A stretch of 64,000 nt of DNA from Pseudomonadota bacterium (GCA_003247575.1 QJZC01000004.1:3103-67102), one strand, 5' to 3'; numbered from the stretch's first letter, positions 1 to 53,571 are shown. Program-made: numbers and translations. The notes: generated by a model from the sequence alone, not told the origin.

Positions 1-1970
1 AGGCCCGCAAGATCGGCGATCAGCTCGGGATCGATCGCGCCGGTGAGGTGACTGGCAAGGGCCACGATCTCGAGTGCCTCCTGCGGAAGGTTCTCGAGGC
101 GGTGGGCGGTGAGCAGGGGTCTTCCCTTCGCGGCAGCGAGCGACTCGATGCGTTCGGGGCTCCACGTCCAGCCCGTGTCTGCGCGGTGCCGTAGCTCCCC
201 CGCCTCGGATAGAAAGAACAAAAGCTCGTGGATCAACCGGGGTTGGCCAGCGGTCTGCCACTGCGTCGCGCGCGCAAGGTCTCGCACGCGTTCTTCCGGG
301 AGATCGAGACGAGCGCCGAGGAGTCGAGAGATGTCTTGCGGGTCGAGGGGGCGTACGGAGAGCTCAGAGATCGCCATCGAGCCGTCCTGAGATGTACTGC
401 GTAGCTCGCTCAGCAGCAGCCGTTCCCGCTCCGAGTCGGTGGCCAGTGACAGAACCACCACCAGGCTACACGGGCTCGCTGATTTCAAGATGCGCCGCAG
501 CAGATAAAGGCTCCCCGAGTCTGCGTAGGTGAGATGGTCGAAGCAAAGGACGAGCGGAGCGTTAGGCCGTGCGATCGCCCGGATGAGGTGGTGGATGGCC
601 GTTCCCAAGCGGGTTCGGCTCTCCTCGGGACCCAGCACGCCCAGCGGAGATTTCGTTCGTACGAGCGTGGATAGCTCAGGCAAGAACTCGGTGAGTACGC
701 CGCCGAGCTCTCCGAGCTCTGCCTGCAGTGCTCGCGACGTGTCGCTCTGGTTGCTTGCGTCGGACATCGAGCTCTCGTGGTTGCCGTCGCTCCCGAGGGA
801 CACGGCCAGGAGTTGCGCGACGAGCCGTTGGAGGCAGTCTCTGATTCCCGCGTAGGGCTCGGCTTCGCGCTCGGGCTCGAATGAGGTGCGCACGAGATGG
901 CCGCCGGCTCGCACGGTGTCGGCGCGGAGCGACGGACCCAGCGCAGATTTTCCGCTGCCGCTGGGACCGCGGACGAGTACGAGCTGAGGTTCACCGTGAA
1001 GAGCGCGCGCTAGAGCGGCACTCAGCTCAGTGAGCTGGGGTTCGCGCCCGTACAGGTGGTCGTCGATTCTCGGAAGCTCATCGATCGGCTCGCGCGGGTC
1101 CGTGTCCGTGTCCGTGCCCGTGTCGTTGGAGCCGGCTCTGGGCGATCCGCAGATGACCTTGCGGCAGCTCTCCAGATCTGCGAGTACGTCCGCCGCGGAT
1201 GCGTAACGATGCTCCGGGCGGCGTTCGATCAAACGCATGATCAGCCGAGACAGGGACACCGGGATCTCGGAACGAGCGTCGGCTACGGAACGCGTGCGCC
1301 TCGAGAGCTGCGCGTAGATCCTCTCTCGCGGTTCGCCCTCGCCGAACGGGGGGGTGCCGGTCAGGGCTCGATACAGGATTGCCCCGAGTGCGTACAGATC
1401 GCTGCGGATGTCCGCGTGCCCATCCAGCAGGCCACTCGCTTCGGGAGCCCCATACGCCTGCGAGCGTGAGTCCGGTCGAGCCTTCCGGGCCGCACGCCCC
1501 CGAGGGGCCAGGGCGCCCGGTTCGAATGCGTGTCCGAACCCGACCAGGGCGAGGGTGTGCGTCCCCGGGTTGACCAGAACGTGAGTCGGGCTGAGCGAAG
1601 CGTGAATGATCCCGGATGTGTGTACGCCGACGAGCGCATCGGTGAGCTCGATCGCCAGCTCCAGGATCTCGACGGTAGACGGCGCGGTTTCGTCGGCCCA
1701 GCGGTCGAGGGGGACGCCGGGCATGAGCTCGAGGGCCAGATACGTGAAGCCGTCTGCGTTTCCTCGCTCCAGCGCTCGCGGAATGCGACGGTCGCGGAGG
1801 CGGTGCAGCAGCTGGAACTCCGTGTCGAGCCAGTACGCGGGATCGCTGTCGGCTAGGCACCATCGGACCAGGACGTGTTCTTCCGTGTCCTCCCGGATGG
1901 CCAGGTGAAGACGCTCATCGCTCTTGCACGAGAGAGCTCGGACCAGGGTGTATCCGGGTGGGTGGAACAT
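1..1970 (-). CDS. Ser/Thr pseudokinase fused to an AAA/STAND-type ATPase domain (C-terminus runs off the window)
   Basis: Absent from the ORF track because it has no stop in the window; translated by hand from ATG 1970. Kinase-fold segments YGAPE, DIRSDLYALGAILYRALTGTPPF are present, followed by LYGRE, Walker A GPSGSGKS and Walker B-like PLVLCFDHLTYAD. Confidence 0.85.
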   Translation of the reverse strand, partial: MFHPPGYTLVRALSCKSDERLHLAIREDTEEHVLVRWCLADSDPAYWLDTEFQLLHRLRDRRIPRALERGNADGFTYLALELMPGVPLDRWADETAPSTVEILELAIELTDALVGVHTSGIIHASLSPTHVLVNPGTHTLALVGFGHAFEPGALAPRGRAARKARPDSRSQAYGAPEASGLLDGHADIRSDLYALGAILYRALTGTPPFGEGEPRERIYAQLSRRTRSVADARSEIPVSLSRLIMRLIERRPEHRYASAADVLADLESCRKVICGSPRAGSNDTGTDTDTDPREPIDELPRIDDHLYGREPQLTELSAALARALHGEPQLVLVRGPSGSGKSALGPSLRADTVRAGGHLVRTSFEPEREAEPYAGIRDCLQRLVAQLLAVSLGSDGNHESSMSDASNQSDTSRALQAELGELGGVLTEFLPELSTLVRTKSPLGVLGPEESRTRLGTAIHHLIRAIARPNAPLVLCFDHLTYADSGSLYLLRRILKSASPCSLVVVLSLATDSERERLLLSELRSTSQDGSMAISELSVRPLDPQDISRLLGARLDLPEERVRDLARATQWQTAGQPRLIHELLFFLSEAGELRHRADTGWTWSPERIESLAAAKGRPLLTAHRLENLPQEALEIVALASHLTGAIDPELIADLAG

Positions 1971-1988
1971 CTGGAGTCTCTCGAGCCT

Positions 1989-2015
1989 GCATCGGCAGGA
2001 GAGACAGCTGGGTGA
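1989..2015 (-). promoter_or_regulatory. Candidate sigma28 (FliA) promoter of the pseudokinase gene
   Basis: Minus strand TCAC-N15-GCCGATGC, 18 nt upstream of the ATG; consensus TAAA-N15-GCCGATAA. Confidence 0.4.
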
Positions 2016-2076
2016 AGCACCTCGGGGGCTCCGAAGTCAGGCTCACTCCGCGCCTTCGAGCCCGGGAGCTACAGGG

Positions 2077-3324: not shown

Positions 3325-6300
3325 GTGTCCAAGCCTACCTACGTCGAGCTAGGGATCCAGAGCGCGTTCAGCTTTCTGGAAGGAGGCGCACTCCCCGAAG
3401 ACCTGGTGGCGCGCGCAGCTGATCGTGGACATGGGGTGCTCGCGCTCAGTGACGTCGATGGGGTCTACGGTATTCCTCGCTTCCATCGCGCGGCAGTGTC
3501 GCAAGGGGTACGTGCAATCGTGGGCGCGCGAATCCATCTGGCGGCGGAAGAAGCGGACTCGGCGATGTTGCATCGGAACGCCACAGCGCGTTCCTGGCGA
3601 CATCGTCAACGGACGGGGCGAGCGTCGGACGATCGGGGGGATTCGCCGCGCGCACCCGCGGGGGCCCCGCCTTCTCGCGGCCGTGTCACGTTGTTGGTGA
3701 AGTCGGCGCTCGGGTACCGCAATTTGTGTCGCCTGTTGACCCTGGGGCATGCGGAGCATCCCAAGCCCCATGCTCGCGTGCGATTGGATCAGCTGCGCGA
3801 GCACGCGCAAGGACTGATCGCCTTGGTGCGTTTACCGGCGCTCGTCGCACCGCTGCGCGAGATGTTTCCTGGCGAGATCTATGGGGAGCTCTGGAGGCTG
3901 CTCGACCCCGACGAAGAGCGCCTCAACCGCGTGCTGTTGGCCACGGGGGTGCCTCCGCTGGCGACGGGTGCGGTGCTCTACGCCAAGCCAGAGGATCGGC
4001 GTCATGTCGACGCCTTTACGTGTCTACGTCACAAGCTGGCCCTCGATGCAGCTGGCCGGCGTTTGCTGCCGAATGCCGAGCGTCACGTGAAGGCTCCCGA
4101 CGAAATGTGTGCGCGCTTCGGTGACCTGCCCGAAGCGCTCAGTAATACGCTGCGCGTCTCCGAGCGCTGCGAATTCTCGCTCGAGCATCTCGGCTATCGG
4201 TTTCCCGACTTTCCGCTCGGCCCCGGCGAGACGGCCGCTGCGAAGCTCCGGCAGCTGTCCGAGCAAGGATTGCGCGATCGATTCGGCCCGCGGATTTCGC
4301 AGCGTGTCTCGAAGCAGCTTGCTCACGAGCTCGCGGTCATTCGTCGGCTCGAGCTCGAAGGGTACTTCCTCATTGTTTGGGACATCGTCTGTGCCTGCAG
4401 AGAGAAAGGGATTCTGGTGCAGGGGCGAGGCTCTGCAGCGAACAGCCTGGTCTGCTACGCGCTCGGGATCACCGCGATCGATCCGATTCGCTACGAGCTG
4501 CTCTTCGAGCGCTTTCTCTCCGAGGAGCGCGGAGAGTGGCCCGACATCGATTTGGATCTGCCGTCGGGTGATCGCAGGGAAGAGATCTTGCAGTACGTCT
4601 ACGCGCGCTATGGTCCCCATGGTGCTGGGATGACGGCGAACGTCATCACGTATCGACCGCGGAGTGCTGTGCGTGAAATGGGCAAGGTGCTCGGGTTCTC
4701 CGAGCCTCAGCTGGGACGGCTCGCGAGCATGCTGTCGCGCTTCGAGTACGTGGAAGAAGACGCCGGCGACGAGATCGTTCGTCGCGCTACGGAATCGGGA
4801 ATGTCGCTGCGGGCTGCGCGCGTACGCCATCTACTGGATCTGGTTTGCCGCATCCAGCATCTTCCGCGGCACCTGAGCCAGCATTCGGGGGGCATGATCG
4901 TGGCACAGGGGCGTCTCGACGAAGTCGTTCCACTCGAGCCCGCACGCATGCCCGGACGTTCGGTCATTCAGTGGGACAAAGAGGACTGTGCAGATCTGGG
5001 TATCATCAAGATCGATCTCCTCGGTCTCGGGATGATGGCCGTTTTGCAGGACGTCATCCCCTTGATTCGAACGCATGACCACGTCGAGATCGATCTCGCA
5101 CAGCTCCCCGCGGATGACCCCCTGACGTATTCCATGCTGCAGAAGGCCGATACCGTCGGAGTCTTTCAGGTCGAGAGTCGCGCTCAGATGGCGACCTTGC
5201 CGCGCATGAAGCCCGCGTGCTTCTACGATCTGGTCGTCGAGGTAGCGATCATTCGCCCCGGGCCGATCGTCGGTGAGATGGTGCAGCCCTACCTACGCCG
5301 TCGGTCGAGCGAGGAACCTGTGACCTATCCGCATCCCGATCTCGAGCCGATCCTCGCGCGAACCTTGGGTGTGCCCTTGTTTCAGGAGCAGCTGCTGCGG
5401 GTGGCCATGGTGATTGCAGGCTTCAGTGGTGGTGAAGCCGAAGAGCTGCGCCGCGCCATGGGGTTCAAACGCTCCGTGGAGCGAATGCGTGCCGTGGTTC
5501 AGCAGCTCCAGCGTGGGATGACGGCGCGCGGGATCGATCCTGCGGTACAAGAGGAGCTGATCAAGCAGATCCGCTCCTTCGCCCTGTACGGGTTTCCCGA
5601 GAGTCATGCGGCCAGCTTCGCCCTGTTGGCCTACGCCTCGGCGTATCTGCGTGCGCACCATCCAGCGTGCTTCTTGGTCGCCATGCTGAACAATGCTCCG
5701 CTCGGGTTCTACAGCCCTGCGACGTTGGTGCACGATGCGCAGCGGCATGGAGTACGGGTGCTTCCCATCGATGTGCAGCGAAGCGAGGTCGCTGCCACGG
5801 TCGATCCCGATGGTGCGGTGCGAATCGGTTTGGAGTATGTCACCGGACTACGTAGGTCGGCTGCGGAGCGCATAGCGCGCGGGCGTCCCTATGGCTCGCT
5901 GGCCGACCTGGCACGCCGCGCGCAGCTAGGGCGTGAGGAGCTCGAGAAGCTGGCCGAGGTGGGAGCCTGCCAGTCTCTGGGGCTCGAGCGCCGTGCTGCA
6001 CTCTGGCAAGTGGCTGCTCTGCGTGGGGACCTCTTGGCCGAGGTGCGCTCGGAGGGCGCATCTCCTCTGCCCGAGATGGGGGCGCTAGAGGAGACGCTCG
6101 CGGACTACCGAGGCTCGGGTCTGACCGTGGCTGCGCACTTGATGCACCATTTTCGGTCTCGGCTGGAAGCTCGCGGCGCGTTGACGGCGCGCGCGCTCGC
6201 GCAGGTTCCGGATGGCCACTGGGTGCGGGTTGCCGGGGCTGTGATCGTTCGCCAGCGGCCGGGAACCGCCAAGGGCTTCCTGTTCCTGACGCTCGAAGAC

Positions 6301-6495: not shown

Positions 6496-6570
6496 GGTTC
6501 CATCTGCGCGATCCTGATCGAGTTCCTTCGGTCTACCCCCGAGGCGCGGAGGATCGTCCGGCGCCAGCCT

Positions 6571-8805: not shown

Positions 8806-8850
8806 AGCACGCTGCCGGCGCCCCCATCGGGGGTATGCCATGCTGTGCGG

Positions 8851-15800: not shown

Positions 15801-16501
15801 CAGCCGAGCAGGCTCGCCGCGATCTCCCGCGACTGCGCGAGTTGCGGGCGAGTGCCCAGCGTCGTTCGGCCCGCGCCTTGGGGGCGCCGGTCACGCAAGC
15901 TCGACTGTCGGAGCCGACTTTCGCCGACCTTCGCAGTGGGAAGCGGCGCGGCAGTGGCCTGAGTGCCTTCGGCGCGCGCGCGCTCGGTAGCATCGTGCAC
16001 GGTCTGCTCGAAGAGCTCGATCTCGCGGCCGAGGTGGATGCAATCGATGCGGGGCTCGAGCGCGGGCTCCGGGCTCACGCGCGGGCGGATGAACGCGAGG
16101 ATGTGAGGCAGGCAGTGGTGGAGTTCTGGCACCGTTTCCAGCAGGGCCCGCTGCGCGCTCGCCTGCGCGAGCTTGCGAGTTGCGTGGTGGCGCGCGAGCT
16201 ACCCTTCGTGATGCCCGTTGCGAACGACCTTCGGAGCGAGGATGCGCCGCTCTACTACAACTCGGGGACCATCGACCTGGTGTACCGCGATCTCGGCCTC
16301 GGGACTCTGGTGGTGGTCGACTTCAAGACGGAGTCGGCTCATGGCGAGGGCGAAGCTTCGAAGTCGGAAGGTCCGCGGTCTGCCGCGATCCGTCAGGTCC
16401 AGGCGTACATGATCGCGCTGCGAGATGGGTTGCGGCTCGATCCGCCGCCTCGTGGCGAGCTGTGGTATCTCGCGACGGGACAGATCGTCGAAGTCAGCTG
16501 A
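12866..16501 (+). CDS. addA: AddA/RecB-like UvrD helicase with C-terminal nuclease
   Basis: EAGAGTGKT, LTFTEAAASEM, VDEFQDT, VGDPKQSIYGWR, LTIHQAKGL, YVALTRARD; nuclease GTIDL...VDFKT...QVQAY. Confidence 0.9.
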   Translation: MSGSSRISPTPHRSELAESDAFARRLAQTEFEQPLVLEAGAGTGKTHTLVARIVAWMLGLGWARASAHCGDDARPERIAARVVERIVALTFTEAAASEMCTRVAATLAMLADGRLPQGIERDSLPSEVAERSARARALLAQSDRLGARTLHSYSRHLLSERPLEAGLVPGFEIDADGSLQRAVVRELIESRLPVWYGEPGDEHALALARRGIAARELEGALLTLLAAGAAPRDLERDAFSPEALASLWSTGIERMECVYAAGLDRLSAARGKRTRELVSALDRLRQILEQPPPMAPALAQVAERIRELFDDSQLGRLAEWSRARFNQGESELIEHDAESLAQQCRALRSWIAHVASLDPDSFEPARALLSPLLGDATDELVARGVQTYSGLIRDAVELLEHPEIATQVRAQIDQLLVDEFQDTDALQCRMLRCLALDPRLGPRPGLFLVGDPKQSIYGWRQADLAAYEGFVSEVIAAGGAKQRLSLNFRSLPAILDEVETAIAPVMRYERGVQPGFEPLIAHRVAAEDSSQAASERESSRGCVEYWIPCEMDANDARPVQTSRERAIQLEARAVALDMCRQHAECGVAWGRMALLLRARTDQEAFLAALREHAVPFEVQGDRGYYRRREVIEAAAWVRCIVDARDSVALVAWLRSSPVGVPDSALLPLWKMGLPERLAELSRPDPVRLAALFADIRACGRAVPASAALDPVLAQAWPATLCAAVETLARLRESFETEPADHFVEKLRTLSLLEVSEGRRYLGAYRVANLDRYFRTLVRDLGAGTGDVAHVLRRLRQRVRDAEEAEESRIAESQRDAVSVLTIHQAKGLDFDHVYLAQLYKGSRRADVPSVAAIRIGDVLEYVLFRAPTPGWFHSAERALAVERAEQVRTFYVALTRARDRLVLSGVGPVGVRGGGPSAHAASYADLLATRARGLPSLDELAAQDPAAETVWDDVRWCFLARRVLASKPTSGAGPTLTSPAEQARRDLPRLRELRASAQRRSARALGAPVTQARLSEPTFADLRSGKRRGSGLSAFGARALGSIVHGLLEELDLAAEVDAIDAGLERGLRAHARADEREDVRQAVVEFWHRFQQGPLRARLRELASCVVARELPFVMPVANDLRSEDAPLYYNSGTIDLVYRDLGLGTLVVVDFKTESAHGEGEASKSEGPRSAAIRQVQAYMIALRDGLRLDPPPRGELWYLATGQIVEVS

Positions 16502-16856
16502 CGACCTTTGCCACCGTGCGCAGCAGCTGCTCGGGGTCGAAGGGCTTGACGATCCATCCGGTCGCGCCCGCCGCCTTGCCGCGCTGCTTCTGCTCGGCGC
16601 TCGAGTCCGTCGTCAGCACCAGGATCGGCGTGAACTTGTAGGCGGGCAGGGTGCGCAGCTCGCCTACCAGAGTGATCCCATCCATGCGCGGCATGTTGAT
16701 GTCGGTGATCACCAGATCGAATGACTCGGCCGCCGCGATCTCGAGCGCCTCCACGCCATCTTCCGCACAGCGGGGCTGGTGGCCGCCACTCTCGAGTGTG
16801 TATTGAACCATCTCACGCATCGACTTGGAGTCGTCGACACAAAGTATGCGGGCCAT
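16494..16856 (-). CDS. cheY: Chemotaxis response regulator CheY-like (single receiver domain)
   Basis: VDDS, DINMPRMDG, PILVLTT, GATGWIVKPF. Confidence 0.9.
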   Translation of the reverse strand: MARILCVDDSKSMREMVQYTLESGGHQPRCAEDGVEALEIAAAESFDLVITDINMPRMDGITLVGELRTLPAYKFTPILVLTTDSSAEQKQRGKAAGATGWIVKPFDPEQLLRTVAKVVS

Positions 16857-16917
16857 CCCCACCCACTCCCGTCGTTAGCGAACGAAGTGCTTTCGTGCGG
16901 CTGAACTTCTAGGGGTC

Positions 16918-16944
16918 TCTTCGGCTGCTACAGGGTGGTCTTGA
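16918..16944 (-). promoter_or_regulatory. Sigma28 (FliA) promoter of cheY
   Basis: Minus strand TCAAG-N14-GCCGAAGA with canonical spacing, upstream of a chemotaxis gene. Confidence 0.6.
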
Positions 16945-17178
16945 ACTCTAACTCGCCCGGTGCGGAGAAGAGGCGCTCTGCTGGGCCGGTGATCTAGGCT
17001 GGCGCCTGCGGGTATTGCACAGGCGTGCCAGCGGTGGCCAGCATGTGCACGGGCGGATCAGCGGGGAAAGAGTGCGTTCCGCGCGAGAGCCTCCTGCCAA
17101 GGCGGCTGCGAGCGCACCTTGCAACGCGGAGTGCCGTCCCCTGTACGGTTCTCCGCGGACAGAGCCGATAGCGAGGCC

Positions 17179-18294
17179 ATGCCTGCAGTCCCGTCGTCAT
17201 CTTCACCGGAGTGCGAAGCAGAGACGTGCGCCAATCTGGACTCCACCCGTTCGGGCGGTTCTGATCGGGTGGGAGGCTCTGAGCTGGCGTACGAATCTCG
17301 TCCGGAGTCGCTGATGGATGTGATCGGCGCGATCAGTCGCTTCTCCTGTGTGGAGATTGGCGAGGTCAGTCGGATGTCGGTCGGGCTGCGCAAGCTACTC
17401 GCCGACGCGGTGGTCACCATGCGTGAGAGCTTTCACGGGATGCGCGAGGGTGCGGAGGGCCAAGCTGCGCTCGTCGAGCAGATGGTGGGGGAGCTTGCGA
17501 CCGACACCGAGGATCTCGTCAGGCGGGAGCGCGGCTTTCAGCACTTCGCAGCAGAGCTCGATGAGGTGTTGAGGGGCCTGGTCGACCGGCTCGAGCTGAT
17601 GGGAGCCACCAGCTGTCGCATGACCGCACTCGCCCATCGCGGCTTCGCGTACGTCGAGGAGATCAGCCAGATTGCGAAGCGCGTCGGGGATATCGCCGAC
17701 CAGACGCGTTGGCTGTCCCTGAACGCGCGTATCGAGGCCGCTCACGCGGGCGATGCGGGCTCGGGCTTCGAGGTCGTGGCTACCGAGGTCAAGAATCTGG
17801 CGAACGATGCCGCCGATGCGGCACAACGCATCTCCGACGCGGTCGACGAGGCGAAGAAGGTTTCCGAGCAGATGTCGCATCGCTCTGCCGAGGTGGCGCT
17901 CGGCGAGGCTCGCGGCGCACTCGAGGCCGGGGAGCGTGTCGGCGAGATCATGCGCGAGGTGAGCGAGCTCAATGGCCGCGCCATGCACGCCTTCGAGCAG
18001 ATCTCACAGCTCGCGCAGAAGCTCAAGCGTGATGCCGCGCGGGCGGTGATGAGCCTGCAGTTCGAGGACATCGCGCGCCAGCAGCTCGAATTCGTGGAGG
18101 CGACCCTGAGTCGCGTGACCGACGTTCTCACGGTCCTCGACTGCGCTTGTCGTGAATCGGACGGGAGTTCGACGGACTCCGCGCGCCTGGCCGCCGATCT
18201 ACGCGGCGTCCTCGAGCGCACTCGCGGGAGCGAGATTCGCAATGTCGCGCACCAGACCGACGTAAGCGGCGGCGGGGGCTGCGACTTCTTCTAG
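17179..18294 (+). CDS. Soluble methyl-accepting chemotaxis protein
   Basis: IADQTRWLSLNARIEAAHAGDAGSGFEVVATEVKNLA signalling hairpin; AVMSLQFED; no transmembrane segment. Start uncertain (17179 or 17313). Confidence 0.88.
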   Translation: MPAVPSSSSPECEAETCANLDSTRSGGSDRVGGSELAYESRPESLMDVIGAISRFSCVEIGEVSRMSVGLRKLLADAVVTMRESFHGMREGAEGQAALVEQMVGELATDTEDLVRRERGFQHFAAELDEVLRGLVDRLELMGATSCRMTALAHRGFAYVEEISQIAKRVGDIADQTRWLSLNARIEAAHAGDAGSGFEVVATEVKNLANDAADAAQRISDAVDEAKKVSEQMSHRSAEVALGEARGALEAGERVGEIMREVSELNGRAMHAFEQISQLAQKLKRDAARAVMSLQFEDIARQQLEFVEATLSRVTDVLTVLDCACRESDGSSTDSARLAADLRGVLERTRGSEIRNVAHQTDVSGGGGCDFF

Positions 18295-25819: not shown

Positions 25820-26292
25820 GGAGCAGGACCTCCTCGGTTCGGTCGCAGGCAGGGCACGTCCGCTTCGAACCCTGTGCGACCGCCGAGCAGTGCGATCGCC
25901 GACCACGGACGCGCCGGCCATCTGACACCGGACGAGGCGTCGACCGGACGCGTCGTTGGAGTCTAGATGACATGCTGCAAGTCGAGCCTATCAGCTATCC
26001 ACCTTCGAGCGGGGCTCGCTACTGCAATACGCAGCATCTTTTCATCTACTGAATGGGGCCGGAATATTGAGGATTTGCGGGTATTTATGGGGTTTTCATC
26101 GAAACCTCATCGATTCGGTGTGTAAGTCGCATCAACGGGTCCAGGGCGCGACACCGGCGTCGTACACGGAAGCCAGCCACACTGGGTGCTGTTCAAAGGT
26201 AGCTGCGTGTTGGGGCCCACGACGGGTCTGTCCGTACTGACGGCCGCTGGCTGGCTTCGGCTCGAGTTGCGCTCACCTTGCTTGGTAGAGGG

Positions 26293-26320
26293 TAAACCCG
26301 CGCTCACTGCGGGCCGATAG
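26293..26320 (+). promoter_or_regulatory. Candidate sigma28 promoter of the degenerate IOR gene
   Basis: TAAA-N16-GCCGATAG, ending 10 nt before ATG 26331. Confidence 0.45.
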
Positions 26321-26330
26321 AACCCGCAGA

Positions 26331-29300
26331 ATGGCGGAAACGTCGCGCACTTGGCCCGTTCTCTGGGACCGTTTTCACAAAGCCGAGGGACGGGTTCATC
26401 TTACCGGCTACGAGGCGGTCGTTCGGCTGATGCTCGACCACGTGCGGCTCGAACGCAGGGCAGGGCGACGTGTAGCCGCGCTCTACTCTGGCTGTCCTGG
26501 TAGCTCGATGGACGCGCTCGTCGATCTACTCGATGCGCTCGAGCCCTTGCTCACGGATCATGATACGCGCTTCGTTCCTGCGCTGGACGAGGCCCTGGCA
26601 GCGGAAGCGATCGTCGGCACTCAGGCGCTGGATCTATTTCCGCACTCGCACCACGACGGCGTGCTCGGTGCGTGGATCGGGTCGGCCTCTGGGCTGGAAC
26701 GCGCCCTGAGTGTCGTGCGGCGCGCCAGCTATCAGGGAGTGTCGCGCTTCGGGGGTGCGCTCGTACTCGTGGGCGACGATCCATCCGGGGCGAGCACGGG
26801 GATGCCGACCTACTCCGAGAGTGCGCTCGCTCACGCCTTCGTACCGGTCTTCTATCCCGCGGACGCTGCGGAGATCCTGAGCTTGGGACGTCACGCATTG
26901 GCGATCTCTCGCTTTGCTGGAACCTGGGTCTCGCTCAAGCTCGTGCGCGACGTCGTGGCTGGCGGCATGATCGTGACACTCGAACGGAATCCGTTCGAGC
27001 CTCAGCTTCCGAAGCTCGAATTCGCGGGACGAGCATTCGAGAAGCGCCTCGAGCCCTCGCTGCGGCGCGCCGCGATCCGCCGCAGCGAGCATGAGTTGGT
27101 CTATGAGCGCCTCGAGGCGGTCCAGAGATACGCCGATCTGAATGAGCTGAATCCAGTCGAGCATCGTCATGCGCGCGATCGCCTCGGGATCGTCGCCAGC
27201 GGTCGCCTGTATCGGGAGCTCCAGAGCGCCTTCGAGCTGTTGGGCCTCGATGCGGCGGCGCTCGGAAAGCTGGGGATTCGGGTTCTGCGTCTGCAGCTGC
27301 TCTATCCCATCCCCAAGCGTCGTCTGCGTGAATTTGCCGAGGGGCTCAGCGAAGTCATCGTGCTCGATGATCGACGCGGGTTCATCGAGGATCAGATTCG
27401 GATCGGACTGTGCGATCTGACTTCGCCGCCGCGCGTGCTGGGCCAGCGCGATCGCCGTGGGGCACCCTGGCTTGCTCGTCATGCCGAGGTCACTGCGGAG
27501 TCGCTCGCGCTCGATTTGGGGCCCTACCTGGCGCGGCAGTACGCGCCTTCGGGAAGCGACCTGCCGGTCCTTCAGCGGCTTCACAAGAAGGTCGATCCAG
27601 AGACGGGAGAGGCGCGCATCGTTCCCGTTCAGGGACCCGACGTGGTGCGGGATGCCCTCGTGAGCCGCATCGCGGAGCTCGGAATCGCGCGCCATCGCCT
27701 GCCGAGCGCGTGGAGCGTGTCGGAGGCGTGTTCACGCGCCGAAGAAAGCAGTGCCGCCTGCCCATCGGGGGAGATGGGGCCCCTCTCCGAAGAGGTGTAT
27801 GGCGTCGGATCGGTGTCGAGCTGGATCGGGCTTGCTCCCTACATCCACACGCGGCATCGCTTCGTGCGGCTGCCACGAACCCTGCCCTGGCACAGATCAC
27901 GGCTCGTGATCCAGGCAGCGATCGATGCGGGGGTCACCGTGACCTACGTGTTGCAGCTGCATTCGATCTCCGGGGGGCGTGACGAACGTCGCGCAGGAAA
28001 ACCCGTCGGCGACGCAAGCGCCGTTGCGAGCGAGAGACGCTGTCGGCCATCGCGTGCCGATTGCATCCGCGCACTCCTCGCCGAGGGGGTCGCGCACGTA
28101 GTCGCTCGGATTCACGACCCAGCGATCGATGCATTGGCCGAGCGAGATCCGAGAGTCGAGGTCGTGCGCACGCAGAACATCGAGCAGATGCAGCAGCGGT
28201 TGGCCGCTCAGTCTGGGGTCAGCCTGTGGATCGAGCAGGAGCCGGCGGATTCCCTCACCGAGCTGCAGCGGCGCGTGCCCGTTTGGGCCTTCCCCCCGGA
28301 ATCGTTCGGGCCGAGCTGGTCAGAGCTGTTCGACATCGAGGGGGAGTGGGCTCCTGGGCCGGCGTATCGAGAGCTCGAACAGCTCGTCCTGGATGAGCCT
28401 GATCTCCCGACGGAGGGTGCGAGGCGCGTTCAGCTGTGCGCTTCCGGTCCTTCTGCGGAACGCATCATCGACGTCATCGTGCGAGCGGCCGAGATCGAGG
28501 GGCTTCATGCTGTGCATCTGGCCTGCCCGCACGGGCCTCAGCCCGCTGCGTCCGACTGGGCCAGCTGTATCCTGAGCTCTACACCGATCCCGGGATCCGC
28601 GCGGGTCGTGCTCGAAGGGGCGAGCTGCGTGTTCGCATCGAGCTTCGAGCTCCCGCCCAGCGCCTCAGGTGATCGCGTACTGTCACCGGAGAGGTCGCTG
28701 GTGCTTCTGCACCGGCCAGCAGCTCCGGATCGGATCGTCGGCACCCGGAGCTCCGCGACGGACGTGCAACACAGCTGGGATGCGCGTTGCCGGGAGCTCC
28801 AGGTGATAGACGCGCGCGAGCTCTGTCGCAGCGTGCTCGGGGCACCGCAGCACCATCCGATGGTGCTCCTTGGGATGGCTGCCCAGCGGGGTAGGCTGCC
28901 CTTTGCAAGTGCTGGGCTCGAGTGTGCGATTCGCGACCGCGAGTCCGATCTGGAAGGGAGCCTGCTGGCCCTGCGGCTGGGCCGGGCCGTTGTCGCGGCC
29001 CCCGAGGTCGTGGAGAGATGGATGCGCGCGGCGCTGGATCATGACAGTGCCCACTCTCTCCGGACGGCCTCCGCGTCTGCGGGCCGCCCCGATGATCCAC
29101 ATGCGATTCTCGAGCGAGCGTTGGCGCCTTTCACGGATCGACGAGTGGCCACCGGTGCGCTGGAAGCGCTGTCCAGGCAGGCCCGCGAGCTGGCGGACTA
29201 CCAGGACCTTGCCTACGCCACCCGGTTCGCGTCCGTCGTCGAGGTTCTACTCGCTTCAGAGGCCCGAAGTTCGGAGCTTCGCCAGCCTCTGCTCTCGGTT

Positions 29301-29834
29301 CGAGCTGCCGACGTCTTGGCTGAGCTGATGCTGACCCCGGACTTCTACGAATCTGCTCGGCAGCGTCTGCGGGGGAGGTATCGGCTCTGGCTCGAAGGGC
29401 GCTCGAAGCGCCTCAGGCTCCGCCACCGCCTACGATCCGCGCTCTGGCCTACGCTCCAGCGAACAAAGTCCGCGTGGGAGGGCGCCGGAAGCCCGCTGCC
29501 CACCGCCGAGATCTCCGTCTCAGCACGCTGGGGGGATTGGCTGCTGGCGGTCGTCGTTTCCGCACGTCGGCTGCGCAACTCGGTGCTCGACCCTGCGCGA
29601 CTGAGTCCGCGGGTCAGGTTGCTGCGCGCACGGCGCGAGTTCGGGGTCGCGTGTCTGGGACGTCTCGGTGAGCTGTGGGCGCGGAGATCCTCCGAGGGGA
29701 TCGAGAGCGACAACGTGGTCGGGTTCTGCATCGAACAGCTCCACCATCTGGCGGCGCTCGATCCGAGTGAGGTGGACTCAGTCCGCCGCATCGAGGCGCG
29801 CATCGAGACCCGCCTGGAAGGCGAGCGCGAATGA
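26331..29834 (+). CDS. Indolepyruvate ferredoxin oxidoreductase (fused alpha/beta) homologue, catalytically degenerate
   Basis: LTGYEAVVR, GGALVLVGDD, AISRFAGTWVSLK, RLGIVASG, FAEGLSEVIV, LADYQDLAYA retain the IOR scaffold over about 1170 aa. TPP and Fe-S motifs are not recognisable. Confidence 0.8.
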   Translation: MAETSRTWPVLWDRFHKAEGRVHLTGYEAVVRLMLDHVRLERRAGRRVAALYSGCPGSSMDALVDLLDALEPLLTDHDTRFVPALDEALAAEAIVGTQALDLFPHSHHDGVLGAWIGSASGLERALSVVRRASYQGVSRFGGALVLVGDDPSGASTGMPTYSESALAHAFVPVFYPADAAEILSLGRHALAISRFAGTWVSLKLVRDVVAGGMIVTLERNPFEPQLPKLEFAGRAFEKRLEPSLRRAAIRRSEHELVYERLEAVQRYADLNELNPVEHRHARDRLGIVASGRLYRELQSAFELLGLDAAALGKLGIRVLRLQLLYPIPKRRLREFAEGLSEVIVLDDRRGFIEDQIRIGLCDLTSPPRVLGQRDRRGAPWLARHAEVTAESLALDLGPYLARQYAPSGSDLPVLQRLHKKVDPETGEARIVPVQGPDVVRDALVSRIAELGIARHRLPSAWSVSEACSRAEESSAACPSGEMGPLSEEVYGVGSVSSWIGLAPYIHTRHRFVRLPRTLPWHRSRLVIQAAIDAGVTVTYVLQLHSISGGRDERRAGKPVGDASAVASERRCRPSRADCIRALLAEGVAHVVARIHDPAIDALAERDPRVEVVRTQNIEQMQQRLAAQSGVSLWIEQEPADSLTELQRRVPVWAFPPESFGPSWSELFDIEGEWAPGPAYRELEQLVLDEPDLPTEGARRVQLCASGPSAERIIDVIVRAAEIEGLHAVHLACPHGPQPAASDWASCILSSTPIPGSARVVLEGASCVFASSFELPPSASGDRVLSPERSLVLLHRPAAPDRIVGTRSSATDVQHSWDARCRELQVIDARELCRSVLGAPQHHPMVLLGMAAQRGRLPFASAGLECAIRDRESDLEGSLLALRLGRAVVAAPEVVERWMRAALDHDSAHSLRTASASAGRPDDPHAILERALAPFTDRRVATGALEALSRQARELADYQDLAYATRFASVVEVLLASEARSSELRQPLLSVRAADVLAELMLTPDFYESARQRLRGRYRLWLEGRSKRLRLRHRLRSALWPTLQRTKSAWEGAGSPLPTAEISVSARWGDWLLAVVVSARRLRNSVLDPARLSPRVRLLRARREFGVACLGRLGELWARRSSEGIESDNVVGFCIEQLHHLAALDPSEVDSVRRIEARIETRLEGERE

Positions 29835-41863: not shown

Positions 41864-42130
41864 TCAGTCGAGGAAGACTTCGCCCTTCTGCTCGAATGGA
41901 ATTCCCAGCGCCAGAAGGATCTTGCGCTTGGTGTCCATGCGGCAGTTCATGCCCTTCTCGACCGAGTGGATCGTTCGCAGTGCGACGCGGGCCTTGCGGG
42001 CCAGCTGCGCTTGGGTCATCAGCTTGTCTTCGCGAAGCTCCCGCACACGATTCCGCTTCCGCCCGCCACTCTGCTGGTCCTGAGACTCGCCACTCATCTG
42101 CTGCTGGTTCGGGTAGCTCGACTGCTCCAT
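41864..42130 (-). CDS. XRE-family HTH protein
   Basis: NRVRELREDKLMTQAQLARKARVALRTIHSVEKG. Start uncertain (42130 or 42097). Confidence 0.85.
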   Translation of the reverse strand: MEQSSYPNQQQMSGESQDQQSGGRKRNRVRELREDKLMTQAQLARKARVALRTIHSVEKGMNCRMDTKRKILLALGIPFEQKGEVFLD

Positions 42131-42367
42131 TCCTTGGAGCTCCTTTCCGCGTTGGAGGAGACCCCCCCAGGCACTCCATTGGGGTTTCACCGCAATGATT
42201 CGGGCCCGCGAAATGGATTCTTTAGAGCGGTTCAGGGTTTAGGTGTGGCGTTCACCTGATGGGCGCGGGGCCGCGGAGAGCGCCGCGCGGGGCGCGAGCG
42301 TACGATCTGCCAGAGGCTTCGCGGACAAGCTGCGTGTCGGAGTACCCTTGGCTGCGCTCGTGCGTAG

Positions 42368-49302: not shown

Positions 49303-50897
49303 TCTGGGCCGCAGGCGGGCTCGTACTCGGCGTGCTGGCGATGGGGGTGCACTTCGCCAGGCGAAACAACCAGGAAATGCACGCGTGGCTTGCCAGCGAT
49401 CCCTATGCGCGACGTCGCTGGGCTCGAGTGACAGCGACCTCGGTCGCCGCTCTGCTGTGTGCGCTCGCTTGGATGCTGTCACAGCGGATCCCTCCGGGAC
49501 TCGGACGCGGTGCGGGCGACACCGTGCTGGTGATCGACGTCTCACGGAGCATGCGCGCCCAGGACGTTCCGCCCAGCCGGCTACGCCGCGCGGCGCGTCT
49601 GGCCGAACGGCTCGTCGCACAGGAGTCGGGGCAGCGTGTGGGGCTCGTGCTCTTCGCGGGTGATGCCTTTGCGGCGCTGCCGCTCACGCTCGACCGCGAT
49701 GCTGCGTTGCCCTATCTGCGCGCCTTGGATACCGAGCTGATCTCCCGTCGCGGAAGCGATGTGGCCCGCGCACTCGAGGTCGCCGCCCGTCTGTTCGACG
49801 CCGAGTCCGAGCGTCCCCGGCGCATCCTGCTGATGTCGGACGGCGAGCATGCGGGGCCACCGCTGGCGGGCGTGCTCTCGCGGCTCAGAACGGCCGGTAT
49901 CCGGATCTCGGTCGTCGGTTTGGGCACACCGCTACCGGTTGCACTTCCGGCCGATCGCGACAGCCAGGTGCTCGTGGATGCGGCCGGCCGCGAGGTTCGA
50001 TCGGCCTTGCAGGCGGATCTGCTGCGCGAGATCGCACGCGAGGGGAGCGGGCGGTACTGGGACGAATGGCGCGAACGTCCCAGCGAGGCCGAGATCGGAA
50101 ATTCGCTGCAGAGGTCTGCCGCGGCCTCGTCGAGTGGCAGCGAGAGTTTCGTGCGGGTCCTTGCGCTGCTCGTCTTCTGCCTGCTCGCGTTGGAATGGCG
50201 TGCGAGCATGGCCCTGGCGCCGAGAGCTCGTGTGGGGCGACCGGGGCCCGCGCTCGCGCTGCTGGTCGGGGCGCTGCTGACCCTCGGTGCGAGCTACGAG
50301 GAACAGCTTCTGGCGGCGGACCATGCGCTCGAGGAGGGCGACGCCCAGTCCGCACTGCGGATCTATCGAGGTCTGGAGGACTCGCGCAAGCCGCACCCCG
50401 ACCTGGAGCTACGCATCGGGAACGCGCTCTATCGGTTGGGACGCTTCGAGGAGGCAGCTGCGTACTACCTCGCGCTCACTCGAGCGGACGTCGTGTCTGC
50501 GCCGCGGCTACGCTTCCGAGCACAGTTCAATCTGGGCAATGCCTTCGCCGAGCTCGGGCGCTACGGAGAGGCGGCGAACGCCTTCTTTGCCGCGCTGCGC
50601 GAACAGCCAGGGCACCGAGAGACGCTCTTCAACTACGAGTGGGTGCTCGAGCGTGTCGAGGCCGGTGGGGGGGGAGAGGGAGAGCTCGATCCGAGCGCCG
50701 ACTCCGAGGAGGCGTTGGCTGCGCTCCCGTCGGATGGAGCGGGCAGCTCCGAGCTCGCGCCCATGGGCGATCTGGAAGCAGAGCGCTGGCTCGCAGGGCT
50801 CGAGGATCGACTCGACGACGTGCTCCGCGATCAGATCGAGCGCGAGCTATCAATGAGCGGACAGGAGGGTGAGCCCCCAGGAGGTCAAGCCTGGTGA
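49299..50897 (+). CDS. VWA + TPR protein (BatB-BatC fusion)
   Basis: DVSRSM..QDV.PSRL, LPLTLD, MSDGE, then TPRs IGNALYRLGRFEEA and FNLGNA. Confidence 0.85.
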   Translation: MIWAAGGLVLGVLAMGVHFARRNNQEMHAWLASDPYARRRWARVTATSVAALLCALAWMLSQRIPPGLGRGAGDTVLVIDVSRSMRAQDVPPSRLRRAARLAERLVAQESGQRVGLVLFAGDAFAALPLTLDRDAALPYLRALDTELISRRGSDVARALEVAARLFDAESERPRRILLMSDGEHAGPPLAGVLSRLRTAGIRISVVGLGTPLPVALPADRDSQVLVDAAGREVRSALQADLLREIAREGSGRYWDEWRERPSEAEIGNSLQRSAAASSSGSESFVRVLALLVFCLLALEWRASMALAPRARVGRPGPALALLVGALLTLGASYEEQLLAADHALEEGDAQSALRIYRGLEDSRKPHPDLELRIGNALYRLGRFEEAAAYYLALTRADVVSAPRLRFRAQFNLGNAFAELGRYGEAANAFFAALREQPGHRETLFNYEWVLERVEAGGGGEGELDPSADSEEALAALPSDGAGSSELAPMGDLEAERWLAGLEDRLDDVLRDQIERELSMSGQEGEPPGGQAW

Positions 50898-52360
50898 GAT
50901 CGGCGTGCGTCGCGGCGGCGTGCGCAGTCGTGCTGGCGGTGTCGGGGTTCAGCTCTGCCGAGGAGCCTACGGTCCCTCCAGCACCGTCAGCGGTACCGTC
51001 CGCGACTCAGGCGGAGTCGCGACGGCGCGAGGCTTTTCCTGAGGTGCCAGAGCCTTCTGCTGCGCAGATCCGTTGGTCGCGAAGCCCGGTACGCGTCGGG
51101 CAGCAGGTGATGCTCGAAGTGATGCTTCAGCACTCGGTCACGCAGGAGCCACGCTGGCGAGCCCCCGAGTTCGCCGGCTTCCTGGTCGAACGTCTACCCG
51201 CCCAGGGCAGCGCTCTGGAGCGGGACCTTCGTGGGCGCGCGGTGCGCACCACGAGGTTTTTCCGTGTGCTGTTTCCGACTCGTCCCGGCCATCTCGAGGT
51301 GCCGGAGTCAGCCATCGTGCTGCAGGATCGTCGCGGAGTCGAAGTGCGTGTGGTCGTGCCCTCAGCCGCACTGACTGCGGAGTCCCCGCCACTCGAGGGT
51401 CGCCCCTCGGACTTCCGCGGTGCGGTCGGGGACGTGAGTGTTCGCATTGCGCGGCTGGAGGACAACGTGAGCTTGCGAGGGTATATCCCGCTGCGTGTCG
51501 ACGTCGTCGCGACCGCGCATCCTGCGCAGCTAGCGGAGCCGGACTTTGCCGAGCTCCTGAGCGAAGCTGGGGAGGTGTTTCCCGAGCGCACCCAGACCTC
51601 GATGGCAGTGCGACAGGGAGAGCTGGTCAGCCGACGAACGTATCGCTTTTCGCTCGTACCGCGCCGAGTCGGCGAGCTCACCATTCCGGCGCTCTCGCTC
51701 GCGTACTTCGATCCGATGCTGGAGCGCTACCGCTTTGCCACCACTGCACCGCTAACCGTCGAGGTCGTGCGAGACCCGGCCGTCGAGCCGCCGCCGGCGG
51801 AGTCTCTCGACGCCCGTGACCCCGTTGGACGAGAGGCTGCGGACGACGATGCGAGCGCCGCGGGCGGGGCGGGCGACGTCATGCCGATCCTCGCCGTGGG
51901 CTGGACCGTGCTGCGCAGCGTCGCCCTCGCTTGTGCGCTGATCGGACTCTTCCTGGTGCAGCGCCGGCGGCGGAGAAACTCCTCGATGGATCAGGCGCGA
52001 ACCGCAAAGCCGACTTCCCGGGCGCGCGCAGAGCCTGCTGAGGCGGTGGGCTCCTCAGCGACAGAGCTCTCGGCGCGCGAACGCGTGCGCGCTGTGCGAG
52101 CCGATCTACGCGAGTACCTTGCGGTGCTGCACGGTCTGGAGCTGTCGGCCGTGAGCACGTCCGAGCTCGCGCGGCGTATTCGAGACGACGAGGCCATCGA
52201 GATCCTGCAGCGCCTCGACCGGCTGGCATTCGCTTCCGAATGCTCCGAAGCGGAGCTCTCCAGCTGGGCCGAGCGTGCTCGGAGGTATCTCGAGTCCGCG
52301 GATACGACGGCGCGACACCCCCTACACGAGTGCACGCCTCCGGTGTCCGGCGGACACTAG
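50894..52360 (+). CDS. BatD family protein
   Basis: Signal peptide, LFPTRPG, RPSDFRGAVG, IPALSLAYFDP, C-terminal TM. Confidence 0.8.
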   Translation: MRSACVAAACAVVLAVSGFSSAEEPTVPPAPSAVPSATQAESRRREAFPEVPEPSAAQIRWSRSPVRVGQQVMLEVMLQHSVTQEPRWRAPEFAGFLVERLPAQGSALERDLRGRAVRTTRFFRVLFPTRPGHLEVPESAIVLQDRRGVEVRVVVPSAALTAESPPLEGRPSDFRGAVGDVSVRIARLEDNVSLRGYIPLRVDVVATAHPAQLAEPDFAELLSEAGEVFPERTQTSMAVRQGELVSRRTYRFSLVPRRVGELTIPALSLAYFDPMLERYRFATTAPLTVEVVRDPAVEPPPAESLDARDPVGREAADDDASAAGGAGDVMPILAVGWTVLRSVALACALIGLFLVQRRRRRNSSMDQARTAKPTSRARAEPAEAVGSSATELSARERVRAVRADLREYLAVLHGLELSAVSTSELARRIRDDEAIEILQRLDRLAFASECSEAELSSWAERARRYLESADTTARHPLHECTPPVSGGH

Positions 52361-52428
52361 TGCACTGTCGTCCTCTCGGCGTCTCGGCGTCGTGCTGCAT
52401 GGCGGGCGCGGAGAGGTGTCGCGGCTAT

Positions 52429-52455
52429 TTCAGCCGGGATCGACGAGGCCGATAA
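52429..52455 (+). promoter_or_regulatory. Candidate sigma28 promoter of the FHA-cyclase gene
   Basis: TTCAG-N14-GCCGATAA; perfect -10 element. Confidence 0.55.
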
Positions 52456-52527
52456 GCTCCTGGTGCCGGTGCGACCTCTGCTGCGGCACACGAGCTGGTG
52501 CAGAACCGGGTCTTGTGGGGGGGCTGA

Positions 52528-53571
52528 GTGTCGGCGTCGCGAGCCCAGATCGTCGTGATCATCGAGGGACAGACAGAGCGCGTCCTCGACGTGACGGAGG
52601 TCTTCACGATCGGGAGATCGTCGAAGAGCGATCTCGTGATCGACCAGCTGGACTGCTCGCGACAGCACGCCGAGCTGCGCCGCTTGGGGGAGGGCAAGGT
52701 CGTGCTGGTCGATCTCGGTAGCCGCAACGGCTGCTACGTGAATGGTGTACGCATCGAGGGGCGACATACACTCGAGGATGGAGACCGGATCGACATCGCC
52801 GAGGTGATCCTGCGCTTCGCTTGTGACCCACCCGAGAGTGCCTCGGCGAGGGGTCCAGCCGGGGTCGATCTCGGGGTCTCACTCGACGAGTCGACCGCCG
52901 TGCTCGCAGGTACGGGCCCGGATCTCTTCGAGGGTGTTGCTCCGCTCTCCGATCGAGACGATGGCGTATGTGCGATCGTCGTGGTCGCGGACATCACGGA
53001 CCGCAAGGAGATTGGACCCGAGCGCGCGAGCGATCCGCGCGAGGCCTTCGTGGTCGATTGGATTCGCGATGTGGACCGCGTGCTGGAGCGCTCGGGGGCC
53101 GCTCGTTATCACTCGCACCCAGATTCGGGTGCGCGCATGTCGATCGGCTACTGGCTTGTGGATCAACCAGAGAACCCAAAGCCCGATGTGCGGCTGGCGC
53201 TACGCGCTGTGCGCCAGGCGATCGCCCTGGCTGTCGAGGCAGCTCCGCTGGTCGCAGCCGGTCTCGGCGGTGCTTCATTGGTGCCGGCGATCGGGATGCA
53301 CCTCGGCACGATGTATCTCGACCCACTGCCCGGCGCGCGAAACGGGAGCTGGGAGATCTCGGGAGAAGCCCTCGACTCGGCTGCGTCGCTCCGGCGCACG
53401 TGCGAGCGTCTTCGGGCCGGGGTGCTGGTCAGTGGCGAGATCGTCGGCGCGCTGCCCGGGCTCGCGCCTTGTACGGCTCCCTGCGCGGAGCGGATGAACG
53501 GAGCTGACGCGGGGGTGGTTCCGCTCGGCTACAGCATCGATTTGGCACGCGTGGGCTCCGTCCTGGCCTGA
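52528..53571 (+). CDS. FHA domain + degenerate class III nucleotide cyclase domain protein
   Basis: FHA motifs IGRS, SRQHA, DLGSRNG; cyclase-like VVVADI, IGMHLG, ISGEALDSAASL. Confidence 0.8.
   Translation: MSASRAQIVVIIEGQTERVLDVTEVFTIGRSSKSDLVIDQLDCSRQHAELRRLGEGKVVLVDLGSRNGCYVNGVRIEGRHTLEDGDRIDIAEVILRFACDPPESASARGPAGVDLGVSLDESTAVLAGTGPDLFEGVAPLSDRDDGVCAIVVVADITDRKEIGPERASDPREAFVVDWIRDVDRVLERSGAARYHSHPDSGARMSIGYWLVDQPENPKPDVRLALRAVRQAIALAVEAAPLVAAGLGGASLVPAIGMHLGTMYLDPLPGARNGSWEISGEALDSAASLRRTCERLRAGVLVSGEIVGALPGLAPCTAPCAERMNGADAGVVPLGYSIDLARVGSVLA

Follow-up and report, generated by a model that had tools for sequence, protein, structure and literature searches.

Sigma-28 factors (FliA, SigD, WhiG) direct regulons in E. 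coli, Pseudomonas and Bacillus whose promoters consist of two boxes, a CCGAT -10 element and a T(A/C)AA(G) -35 element, and whose targets include flagellin, flgM, flgN, che and PilZ-type genes, with FlgM acting as the anti-sigma factor. In model organisms these regulons comprise a few dozen promoters. Promoters of the same type are described here from a stretch of 64,000 nucleotides (hereafter the window) of a Pseudomonadota bacterium (GCA_003247575.1 QJZC01000004.1:3103-67102; contig C5, positions 3103-67102, of the genome designated G000), whose assembly comprises 5.83 Mb in 68 contigs at ~66% G+C and is estimated to be 74% complete. A sequence-only reading of the window had placed sigma-28-like motifs upstream of five genes: cheY, a gene for a methyl-accepting chemotaxis protein (MCP), and genes for three enzymes that had lost catalytic residues, namely a pseudokinase, a degenerate paralogue of indolepyruvate ferredoxin oxidoreductase (IOR) and a protein joining an FHA domain to a cyclase-like domain. 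It had proposed that dead enzymes were recruited as a class to a sigma-28 programme. The analysis below indicates that the sigma-28 regulon is real and contains the cheY-like and IOR-like genes, and probably that of the pseudokinase. What is worth following in it is a FliA-type promoter, often leaderless, on a lineage-specific family of kinase-STAND proteins.

A FliA-type regulon across the genome

All five motif strings of the sequence-only reading are present in the window, letter for letter and in place. Its own caveat, that GCCGAT is common in high-GC DNA, was well founded: the genome has 6906 copies of the string and the window 83, with no enrichment between genes (14.8% of occurrences are intergenic, against 16.5% of bases, by the gene calls of this analysis). 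The loosest pattern that spans all five proposed sites is too permissive, with 457 occurrences in the genome and 10 in the window; T[AC]AA-N15/16-GCCGA[AT] is found 106 times genome-wide, 62 of them intergenic. Sites were scored with a genome-specific, two-block matrix with a variable spacer, trained on 101 intergenic sites of at least 18 bits. Two early refinements, with thresholds of 8 and 14 bits, were dropped, having drifted into background composition. The consensus of the matrix is TCAAG at -35 and CCGAT at -10, with 16-17 nt between TCAA and CCGAT; the spacer is 17 nt in 78 of the 101 training sites, and is thus mostly one base longer than in known FliA promoters. Also unlike those promoters, hardly anything is conserved after the T of CCGAT, and the flanking and spacer columns are near background.

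Matches of at least 18 bits lie largely between genes (105 of 146), as do 72 of the 87 that reach 20 bits and 33 of the 59 between 18 and 20 bits. The intergenic fraction is 51/161 at 16-18 bits and 76/389 at 14-16 bits, and below 14 bits it sits at the baseline of 14-16%. A composition-matched orientation control compared intergenic matches facing a co-oriented gene with those facing away. At 18 bits or more, 103 matches face toward a gene and 4 away, giving a non-random share of 0.92-0.95; the corresponding counts are 43 and 9 at 16-18 bits (share ~0.64), 63 and 19 at 14-16 bits (~0.49), and 108 and 44 at 12-14 bits (~0.31), and below 12 bits there is no excess toward genes and none of the matches is counted as non-random. 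Summed over matches of at least 16 bits, the excess amounts to roughly 125 promoters genome-wide. Low scores are commonplace: among random genes (800 drawn, those scored), the 150 nt upstream include a site of 3 bits or better in 37% and of 5 bits or better in 23%. Measured in this way, the sites of cheY and the IOR-like gene stand out from background on their own scores. On score alone the site of the pseudokinase (10.25 bits) does not, and it is upheld only through its paralogue family, whereas those of the FHA gene (4.0 bits) and the MCP gene (2.5 bits) are at chance level.

The sigma-28 factor that the sequence-only reading required is encoded in the genome. A single gene of the FliA/WhiG family exceeds the curated cut-off (C38:15873-16544; TIGR02479, 275 bits, cut-off 189.6), and flgM, with a site of 22.0 bits, lies directly downstream of it. 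The flagellar set also includes three flagellins, a FlgL-like protein and FlhA. The flagellin promoters conform to TAAA/TCAA-N15/16-(G/T/C)CCGA(A/T) and score 13.8, 18.7 and 18.5 bits. Annotation of the 39 best-scoring downstream genes outside the kinase family revealed FlgM, FlgN (21.45 bits), CheW (22.63 bits), six PilZ proteins, three receiver-only regulators, a sigma-54 activator, a PP2C phosphatase, an FHA protein of 98 aa, a CHASE2-cyclase, two T2SSE ATPases, a PseB-like Polysacc_synt_2 enzyme, two GT2 transferases, Roadblock and DivIVA proteins, and assorted enzymes and regulators. One MCP gene (20.5 bits) and two of the flagellins (18.7 and 18.5 bits) are among the further targets. The PP2C gene (G000:C38:14708-15430) is divergent from flgM-fliA and has a site of 21.65 bits at C38:14572-14602. 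Viewed alongside the kinase family and the small FHA proteins, this phosphatase suggests FliA-type control over Ser/Thr phosphosignalling in general.

Twenty-five relatives, from other genera of the same family and class, were compared. In G000, TCAAG-N16-CCGAT has 48 exact matches and the reversed pattern 3; 24 of the 25 relatives have 20-52 exact matches each, and the reversed pattern occurs 0-8 times per genome. The exception is G010, which is 89% complete and has only 2 matches; profile and homology searches of the relatives found no FliA, MCP or cheY in it. FliA exceeds its cut-off in 23 of the 26 genomes. The motif excess and the distribution of FliA fit a class-wide FliA-type regulon, the contrast being drawn from one genome, G010.

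The promoter of Pseudomonas aeruginosa fliC is similarly built, reading TCTAAAG ... GCCGATAA (PMC12784957). The part of that report dealing with the open complex numbers GCCGATAA as -15 to -8 and TCTAAAG as -36 to -30 (PMC12784957), and by this numbering the T of CCGAT is therefore -10 and +1 lies ten bases after it. Genome-wide, the offsets of start codons from the T of CCGAT peak at 10-11 nt, the predicted +1/+2. Even where CCGAT is accompanied by a poor -35 box, 31 start codons fall at offset 10, against ~13 at other offsets. This peak suggests that many leaderless mRNAs arise from this class of promoter, which, together with the number of promoters (~125) and the placement of about a quarter of them on one kinase-STAND family, sets the regulon apart from known FliA systems. 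A literature search returned no paper that connects sigma-28, in such bacteria, with STAND kinases or leaderless promoters, which is not proof of absence.

The kinase-STAND family and the window pseudokinase

The nearest named relatives of the window kinase are the trifunctional Ser/Thr kinase/ATP-binding/sensor histidine kinase proteins of Sorangium, Bradyrhizobium and cyanobacteria, which share its Pkinase and AAA_16 domains and a long helical region at ~27-30% identity over 90-96% of the length; PknK-like STAND kinases offer a further, related point of comparison. The family in G000 is made up of a Pkinase domain, AAA_16 (a STAND NTPase) and then ~780 aa without a Pfam match. Members of ~2000 aa add GAF-HisKA-HATPase_c-REC and so share the GAF and histidine kinase modules of the trifunctional proteins; most copies, by contrast, end at ~1270 aa without them.

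A blastp search of the gene set recovered 83 related proteins, 63 of which align from the N-terminus at 200 bits or more, most of them 1220-1320 aa long. The family is taken as at least 63 paralogues; the homology search scored 50 of 139 G000 candidates, all 50 at E <= 1e-20. The expansion is lineage-specific: the 25 relatives yielded one match, in G014, with no motif upstream of it, and none at E <= 1e-20 in the other 24. Members are spread over 33 contigs, with 10 pairs less than 3 kb apart. The contigs include those carrying fliA (C38) and flhA (C12), which argues against a binning artefact.

The window holds the N-terminal 656 aa of one member of 1302 aa (positions 3..1970, minus strand; Pkinase 55 bits, followed by AAA_16), which runs off the window start; the full gene is G000:C5:1164-5072. 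It is 26-35% identical to other family members at the protein level. Aligned with PknB (3f69), VAVK is replaced by VLVR, HRD by HAS, PANI by PTHV and DFG by GFG, so that the four catalytic positions (Lys, HRD-Asp, Asn and DFG-Asp) read RSHG in the family table. By these residues the window kinase is a true pseudokinase, as the sequence-only reading had it. Elsewhere in the family the Lys is kept in 58 of 63 members, the HRD-Asp in 41, the Asn in 47 and the DFG-Asp in 44; 34 members are intact at all four positions and 29 are degenerate.

The sigma-28-type site of the pseudokinase (CTTCACCCAGCTGTCTCTCCTGCCGATGCA; 1988..2017, minus strand) is weak at 10.25 bits and ends 17 nt before the ATG at 1970; its core is TCAC-N15-GCCGATGC at 2015..1989. 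The argument for this site comes from its paralogues. A site of at least 16 bits lies within 200 nt upstream of 30/63 family genes against 18/600 random genes, and one of at least 10 bits in 49/63 against 61/600. When the site is required to end within 25 nt of the start, 33/63 family genes have one of at least 10 bits, against 61 of 4043 other genes. The weak sites are likewise over-represented, since 8 of the 63 have a site of 10-14 bits within that distance, as do 29 of the 4043 other genes, where 0.45 would be expected in the family. Scores in the family run continuously from 23.6 bits to below 4, and the low-scoring sites are recognisable decayed forms (TCAG, TCAC or TCCA ... CCGAT) at the same distance from the start. 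At 12 of 28 family sites, the first in-frame start is reached 6-7 nt beyond the end of the motif, at the predicted +1/+2; among non-family sites a start 4-10 nt after the motif is seen in 15/105. Taken together, these comparisons make it likely, with considerable confidence, that the pseudokinase site is a genuine, weakened family promoter.

The IOR-like gene and its probable promoter

The fused IOR family (NF009589, ~1170 aa) is matched over its full length by a protein of 1167 aa encoded at 26331..29834 on the plus strand, which also shares the C-terminal DUF6537 domain. The window protein scores 414.8 bits against a cut-off of 816, whereas a canonical copy on contig C44 scores 1115.6 bits. 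Pfam detects DUF6537 only, with no TPP_enzyme_C or POR; in the C44 paralogue all three are found. The motifs GCPH, GGGIGCHT, GDGT and MTGGQ are all replaced, and in the thiamine pyrophosphate (TPP) region NxGDGTxxHS has become RLPRTLPWHRS and LLYNxxxAMTGGQ has become LQLH---SISGGR. The loss of the TPP motifs and the sub-threshold score bear out the earlier description of this protein as degenerate. Among columns invariant in six canonical proteins it keeps 130 of 267, with the N-terminal 400 aa well preserved (78 of 102 columns). Six of seven close database homologues keep 242-249 of the 267 columns, and the seventh, P0122, is equally degenerate at 122. The named database matches are metagenome-assembled genomes of Myxococcota and Deltaproteobacteria at 35-36% identity, names that are weak evidence for the taxon of this flagellated high-GC bacterium. 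FlhA matched only proteins of other phyla, at 37-47% identity.

The start of the gene matters to its promoter. Position 18 of the NCBIfam profile aligns to residue 11, and the N-termini of relatives' proteins align from residues 5-13; the true start is therefore 26331. Both the database gene call (P0121, 1108 aa) and the caller used here begin 59 codons late. The sigma-28-type promoter (GGTAAACCCGCGCTCACTGCGGGCCGATAGA; 26291..26321, plus strand; core TAAA-N16-GCCGATAG at 26293-26320) scores 15.35 bits, and its motif ends 9 nt before this ATG. The mRNA leader predicted from the motif is near zero, and no ribosome-binding site is seen upstream of the ATG at 26331.

Sites also precede IOR homologues in relatives, at 20.37 bits in G011, 19.82 bits in G009 (125 nt upstream), 14.45 bits in G008, 10.97 bits in G007, 8.98 bits in G012 and 4.94 bits in G015 (TAAG ... 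TCGATAAT). Thus, of the seven close homologues in relatives, four reach 10.97 bits or more and two 19.8 or more. The IOR-like site is very probably genuine.

The cheY-like gene and the adjoining MCP gene

The cheY-like gene (16494..16856, minus strand) encodes a single-domain response regulator (Pfam Response_reg, 96.3 bits). Against the CheY equivalog NF007901 it reaches 73.6 bits, under the cut-off of 189, and by this profile it is better named a CheY-like single-domain regulator adjoining an MCP. Its promoter (GTTCAAGACCACCCTGTAGCAGCCGAAGAG; 16917..16946, minus strand) scores 16.61 bits and ends 60 nt before the ATG at 16856; the core, TCAA-N15-GCCGAAGA at 16944..16918, reads TCAAG ... GCCGAAG. 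The closest orthologues are those of G015 (71% identity) and G011 (63%). Eleven further CheY-type homologues were scored, from ten other genomes and from the C18 paralogue of G000 itself; in nine, a site located 10-64 nt upstream reaches 12.7 bits or more, and in five the score is at least 17.9 bits. It is likely, with much the same assurance as for the pseudokinase, that the cheY site is genuine.

The MCP gene (17179..18294, plus strand; start codon uncertain) has a clear signalling domain (MCPsignal PF00015, 80 bits, cut-off 34.6). The site proposed for it (TGTACGGTTCTCCGCGGACAGAGCCGATAGC; 17142..17172, plus strand; core TACG-N16-GCCGATAG ending at 17171) scores 2.47 bits, the -35 block alone contributing -7.7. 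Its ATG at 17179 is exactly 10 nt after the T of CCGAT, and a second MCP gene (C66:54175) has the same arrangement of CCGAT and start codon with a poor -35 box. A genome search found seven MCP genes (the window copy at 79.4 bits), only one of which has a strong site. The site in the window is doubtful, its score being at chance level, and a functional promoter here seems possible rather than probable. The MCP gene, one of the two genes that were to serve as internal controls for the motif, thus fails in that role.

The FHA-cyclase gene

The protein encoded at 52528..53571 (plus strand, 347 aa) combines an FHA domain (75.3 bits) with what appears to be a degenerate class III cyclase-homology domain. 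Beyond the FHA domain there is no Pfam match (C-terminal part, E up to 1) or NCBIfam match, including none to PF00211, which separates it from class III cyclases such as CyaB, CyaC, Rv1900c and Ma1120. A phmmer search of the PDB with the C-terminal part gave no relevant match and no solved cyclase. Among 1.84 billion cluster representatives seven matched, six of them FHA-bearing (its own cluster and five others). The family members in the resulting alignment (A1) are P0242-P0246, and P0247, an unrelated TMP-TENI protein, was left in; Pfam Guanylate_cyc is detected in one of the seven aligned proteins, at E = 0.028. A single-sequence AlphaFold model was useless, with a predicted local distance difference test (pLDDT) score of 35.8. 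The model built from the seven-row alignment has a mean pLDDT of 62, and most block means across residues 141-347 are in the range 67-90, three blocks being lower at 48-59. In a Foldseek search of the PDB with this model all 35 matches listed (ranks 1-47, with gaps) are adenylyl or guanylyl cyclases (E 2e-7 to 6e-6, probability 1.00), and residues ~145-347 align to class III cyclases with target TM-scores of up to 0.74. A protein-atlas lead agrees. By its predicted structure, then, the C-terminal part has the fold of a cyclase-homology domain. A manual reading of alignment A1 against the cyclase consensus suggests that, of the two metal-binding Asp residues, the first is retained (VVVADI) and the second replaced by Tyr (IGYW), and that the Asn and Arg of the helix have been lost. 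The earlier description is thus borne out at the level of the fold.

The promoter proposed for this gene (ATTTCAGCCGGGATCGACGAGGCCGATAAG; 52427..52456, plus strand) lies ~72 nt before the GTG at 52528. Its core, TTCA-N15-GCCGATAA at 52429-52455, has a perfect -10 element, GCCGATAA, and no consensus -35, and scores 4.01 bits, a level met by about a quarter to a third of random genes. The concentration of GCCGATAA between genes (10 of 17 occurrences) was considered as support and rejected as mostly compositional, as control words of the form SSSSATAA are 36% intergenic. No orthologue of the protein was found in the relatives, and nothing lies upstream of its paralogue in G000 (C26:21663-22478; 6.8 bits). 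The match is probably due to chance and, on this evidence, is unlikely to be a genuine promoter.

Other sites and genes in the window

One further site, absent from the earlier list, was found at 42196..42226 on the minus strand (TCTAAAGAATCCATTTCGCGGGCCCGAATCA). It scores 14.31 bits, reads TCTAAAG ... CCCGAAT and abuts the GTG at 42190 of a gene for an XRE/HipB-like helix-turn-helix (HTH) protein of 108 aa (41864-42190, minus strand). It probably belongs to the regulon as well. Another small HTH_3 gene, at C38:64749-65000, has a site of 23.5 bits.

A second STAND-type protein, of 1033 aa, is encoded at 21609-24710 on the plus strand and is made up of an OmpR-type Trans_reg_C domain, AAA_16 and TPR. 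Its upstream region, read on the strand of the gene, contains no sigma-28-type site that reaches 8 bits. The 200-nt gap between an AMP-binding gene and this regulator does hold a site of 13.86 bits (21560-21589, minus strand), which points antisense into the AMP-binding gene and is probably a chance match. The regions 3325-16501 and 45554-52360 contain a DnaE-type polymerase, an AddAB-like pair (PD-(D/E)XK nuclease and UvrD-type helicase) and, ending immediately upstream of the FHA gene, a Bat-like operon (VWA, TPR, BatD).

Weighing the explanations

If the window genes are set against the genome-wide picture, what accounts for the promoters they share? Taken as a whole, the likely explanation is a FliA-type regulon that includes the 63-member kinase-STAND family, with catalytic decay as a by-product. 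FliA would read TCAAG-N16/17-CCGAT, whose spacer exceeds the textbook length by one or two bases, at ~125 promoters. These would drive late flagellar and chemotaxis genes (flgM, flgN, flagellins, cheW, one MCP gene and CheY-type regulators) and, from the same kind of promoter, a broad signalling set (six PilZ proteins, PP2C, the small FHA protein, the CHASE2-cyclase and two T2SSE ATPases). Roughly a quarter would drive the lineage-specific family of at least 63 kinase-STAND paralogues, and at many of these the start codon would coincide with the predicted +1/+2, giving leaderless mRNAs. Families already under FliA-type control would have duplicated, some copies keeping the promoter and losing catalysis; catalytic death would not be the criterion of recruitment. 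Three elements of this account are inferred: the reading of the sites by FliA, a transcription start 10 nt beyond the T of CCGAT, and continued activity of the weaker sites.

A number of observations weigh against this explanation. Because exact TMAA and CCGAW cores served as its seed, the matrix is stiff; genuine variants may receive too low a score, and weak sites need support from elsewhere to be validated. Gene starts are those of a simple, purpose-built caller, which makes distances to start codons approximate. At the pseudokinase site a C replaces the second A of the -35 box (TCAC in place of TCAA). Conservation upstream of homologues, which the sequence-only reading had made a test of the motif, is uneven: four of the seven IOR homologues and nine of the 11 further CheY-type homologues have a site of at least 10.97 and 12.7 bits, respectively, the G014 kinase has none, and the two closest cheY orthologues lack a strong proximal site (5.95 bits in G015; 14.74 bits in G011, at 360 nt). 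No motif precedes the IOR homologue of G006 or the canonical IOR of G000 on C44. A quick tree places the IOR-like protein beside the C44 copy with an approximate likelihood-ratio test (aLRT) value of 94, a sister placement that is unsure owing to its very long branch (2.31 substitutions per column). Finally, the family sites differ somewhat from the rest, with T as the fifth base of the -35 box in 39% against 12% elsewhere and a spacing of 17 in 27 of 28, and six of the 25 relatives (G001, G002, G011, G012, G015 and G019) have two FliA-family genes over the cut-off, so that a second sigma-28 paralogue in the 74%-complete G000 could read the family promoters.

The last two points lead to the alternative that survives best, which is nevertheless unlikely: that another sigma factor, for instance an unassembled FliA/WhiG paralogue, reads the kinase-family sites and the other leaderless ones in a non-flagellar developmental or stress programme with an overlapping consensus. 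Besides the paired FliA-family genes of the relatives and the uniform spacing, it would accommodate the use of TCAAT as often as TCAAG in the family and the leaderless geometry of 12/28 family sites against 15/105 elsewhere. Against it, one FliA-type gene was found in G000, flgM, flgN, the flagellins and cheW share the core and spacing, and the base tables of family and non-family sites have the same core, nothing computed here splitting the sites into two motif classes.

Could the family motifs instead be inert relics, copied with each duplication, of which the window kinase site is one decayed example? The lineage-specific duplication, with its 10 closely spaced pairs, and the continuous range of scores, with the window copy among the weak ones, are what such copying would leave. 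However, with the pseudokinase only 26-35% identical to other members, neutral upstream DNA should be fully decayed, yet the two boxes and their spacing alone are conserved between flanks and spacers near background, and the boxes hold a fixed distance to the start codon, which makes this explanation very unlikely.

The original proposal, that sigma-28 specifically controls dead enzymes repurposed as sensors or scaffolds in a motility or developmental programme, is the least probable of all and can be set aside: all three enzymes are degenerate, two of the three very probably carry a FliA-type promoter and 29 of the 63 kinases have lost at least one of the four catalytic residues, but sites of at least 16 bits lie upstream of 15/34 intact and 15/29 degenerate kinases (Fisher p = 0.62, with the same outcome at 14 and 10 bits), all of the relatives' IOR homologues with a promoter keep the four catalytic motifs checked, the 4.0-bit site of the FHA-cyclase gene is of a kind frequent before random genes, and most annotated regulon members are ordinary signalling or flagellar proteins. 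The enrichment upstream of degenerate enzymes that this proposal anticipated is thus not seen in the kinase family, and the kinase counts and the intact promoter-bearing IORs together indicate that catalytic death is not what the genes with the motif share. In the simplest reading of these sequences, catalytic decay is incidental to membership of the regulon.

Significance

Returning to the FliA-type regulon with its kinase-STAND family, sigma-28 regulons are usually seen as small and motility-centred, and the one described here has ~125 promoters, with a FliA-type motif found across a class of uncultured bacteria. Two practical points follow for annotation. Leaderless promoters mislead gene callers, as with the IOR-like gene, whose database start is 59 codons short, and clusters of dead enzymes can arise incidentally through duplication, without a regulatory theme behind them. 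A bolder suggestion, offered tentatively, is that FliA or a close paralogue may be the master switch of more than 60 fast-diversifying STAND kinase and pseudokinase sensors, made from leaderless mRNAs together with PilZ, PP2C and FHA signalling proteins; these would form an NLR-like arsenal deployed in the motile state only, with the pseudokinases as decoys or scaffolds. In one genus the FliA-type motif covers roughly half of a 63-member kinase-STAND family. If the regulon is as described, the flagellar state would be linked to a very large network of Ser/Thr phosphorylation and STAND sensing, and the family would provide a natural example of promoter retention during massive gene-family expansion.

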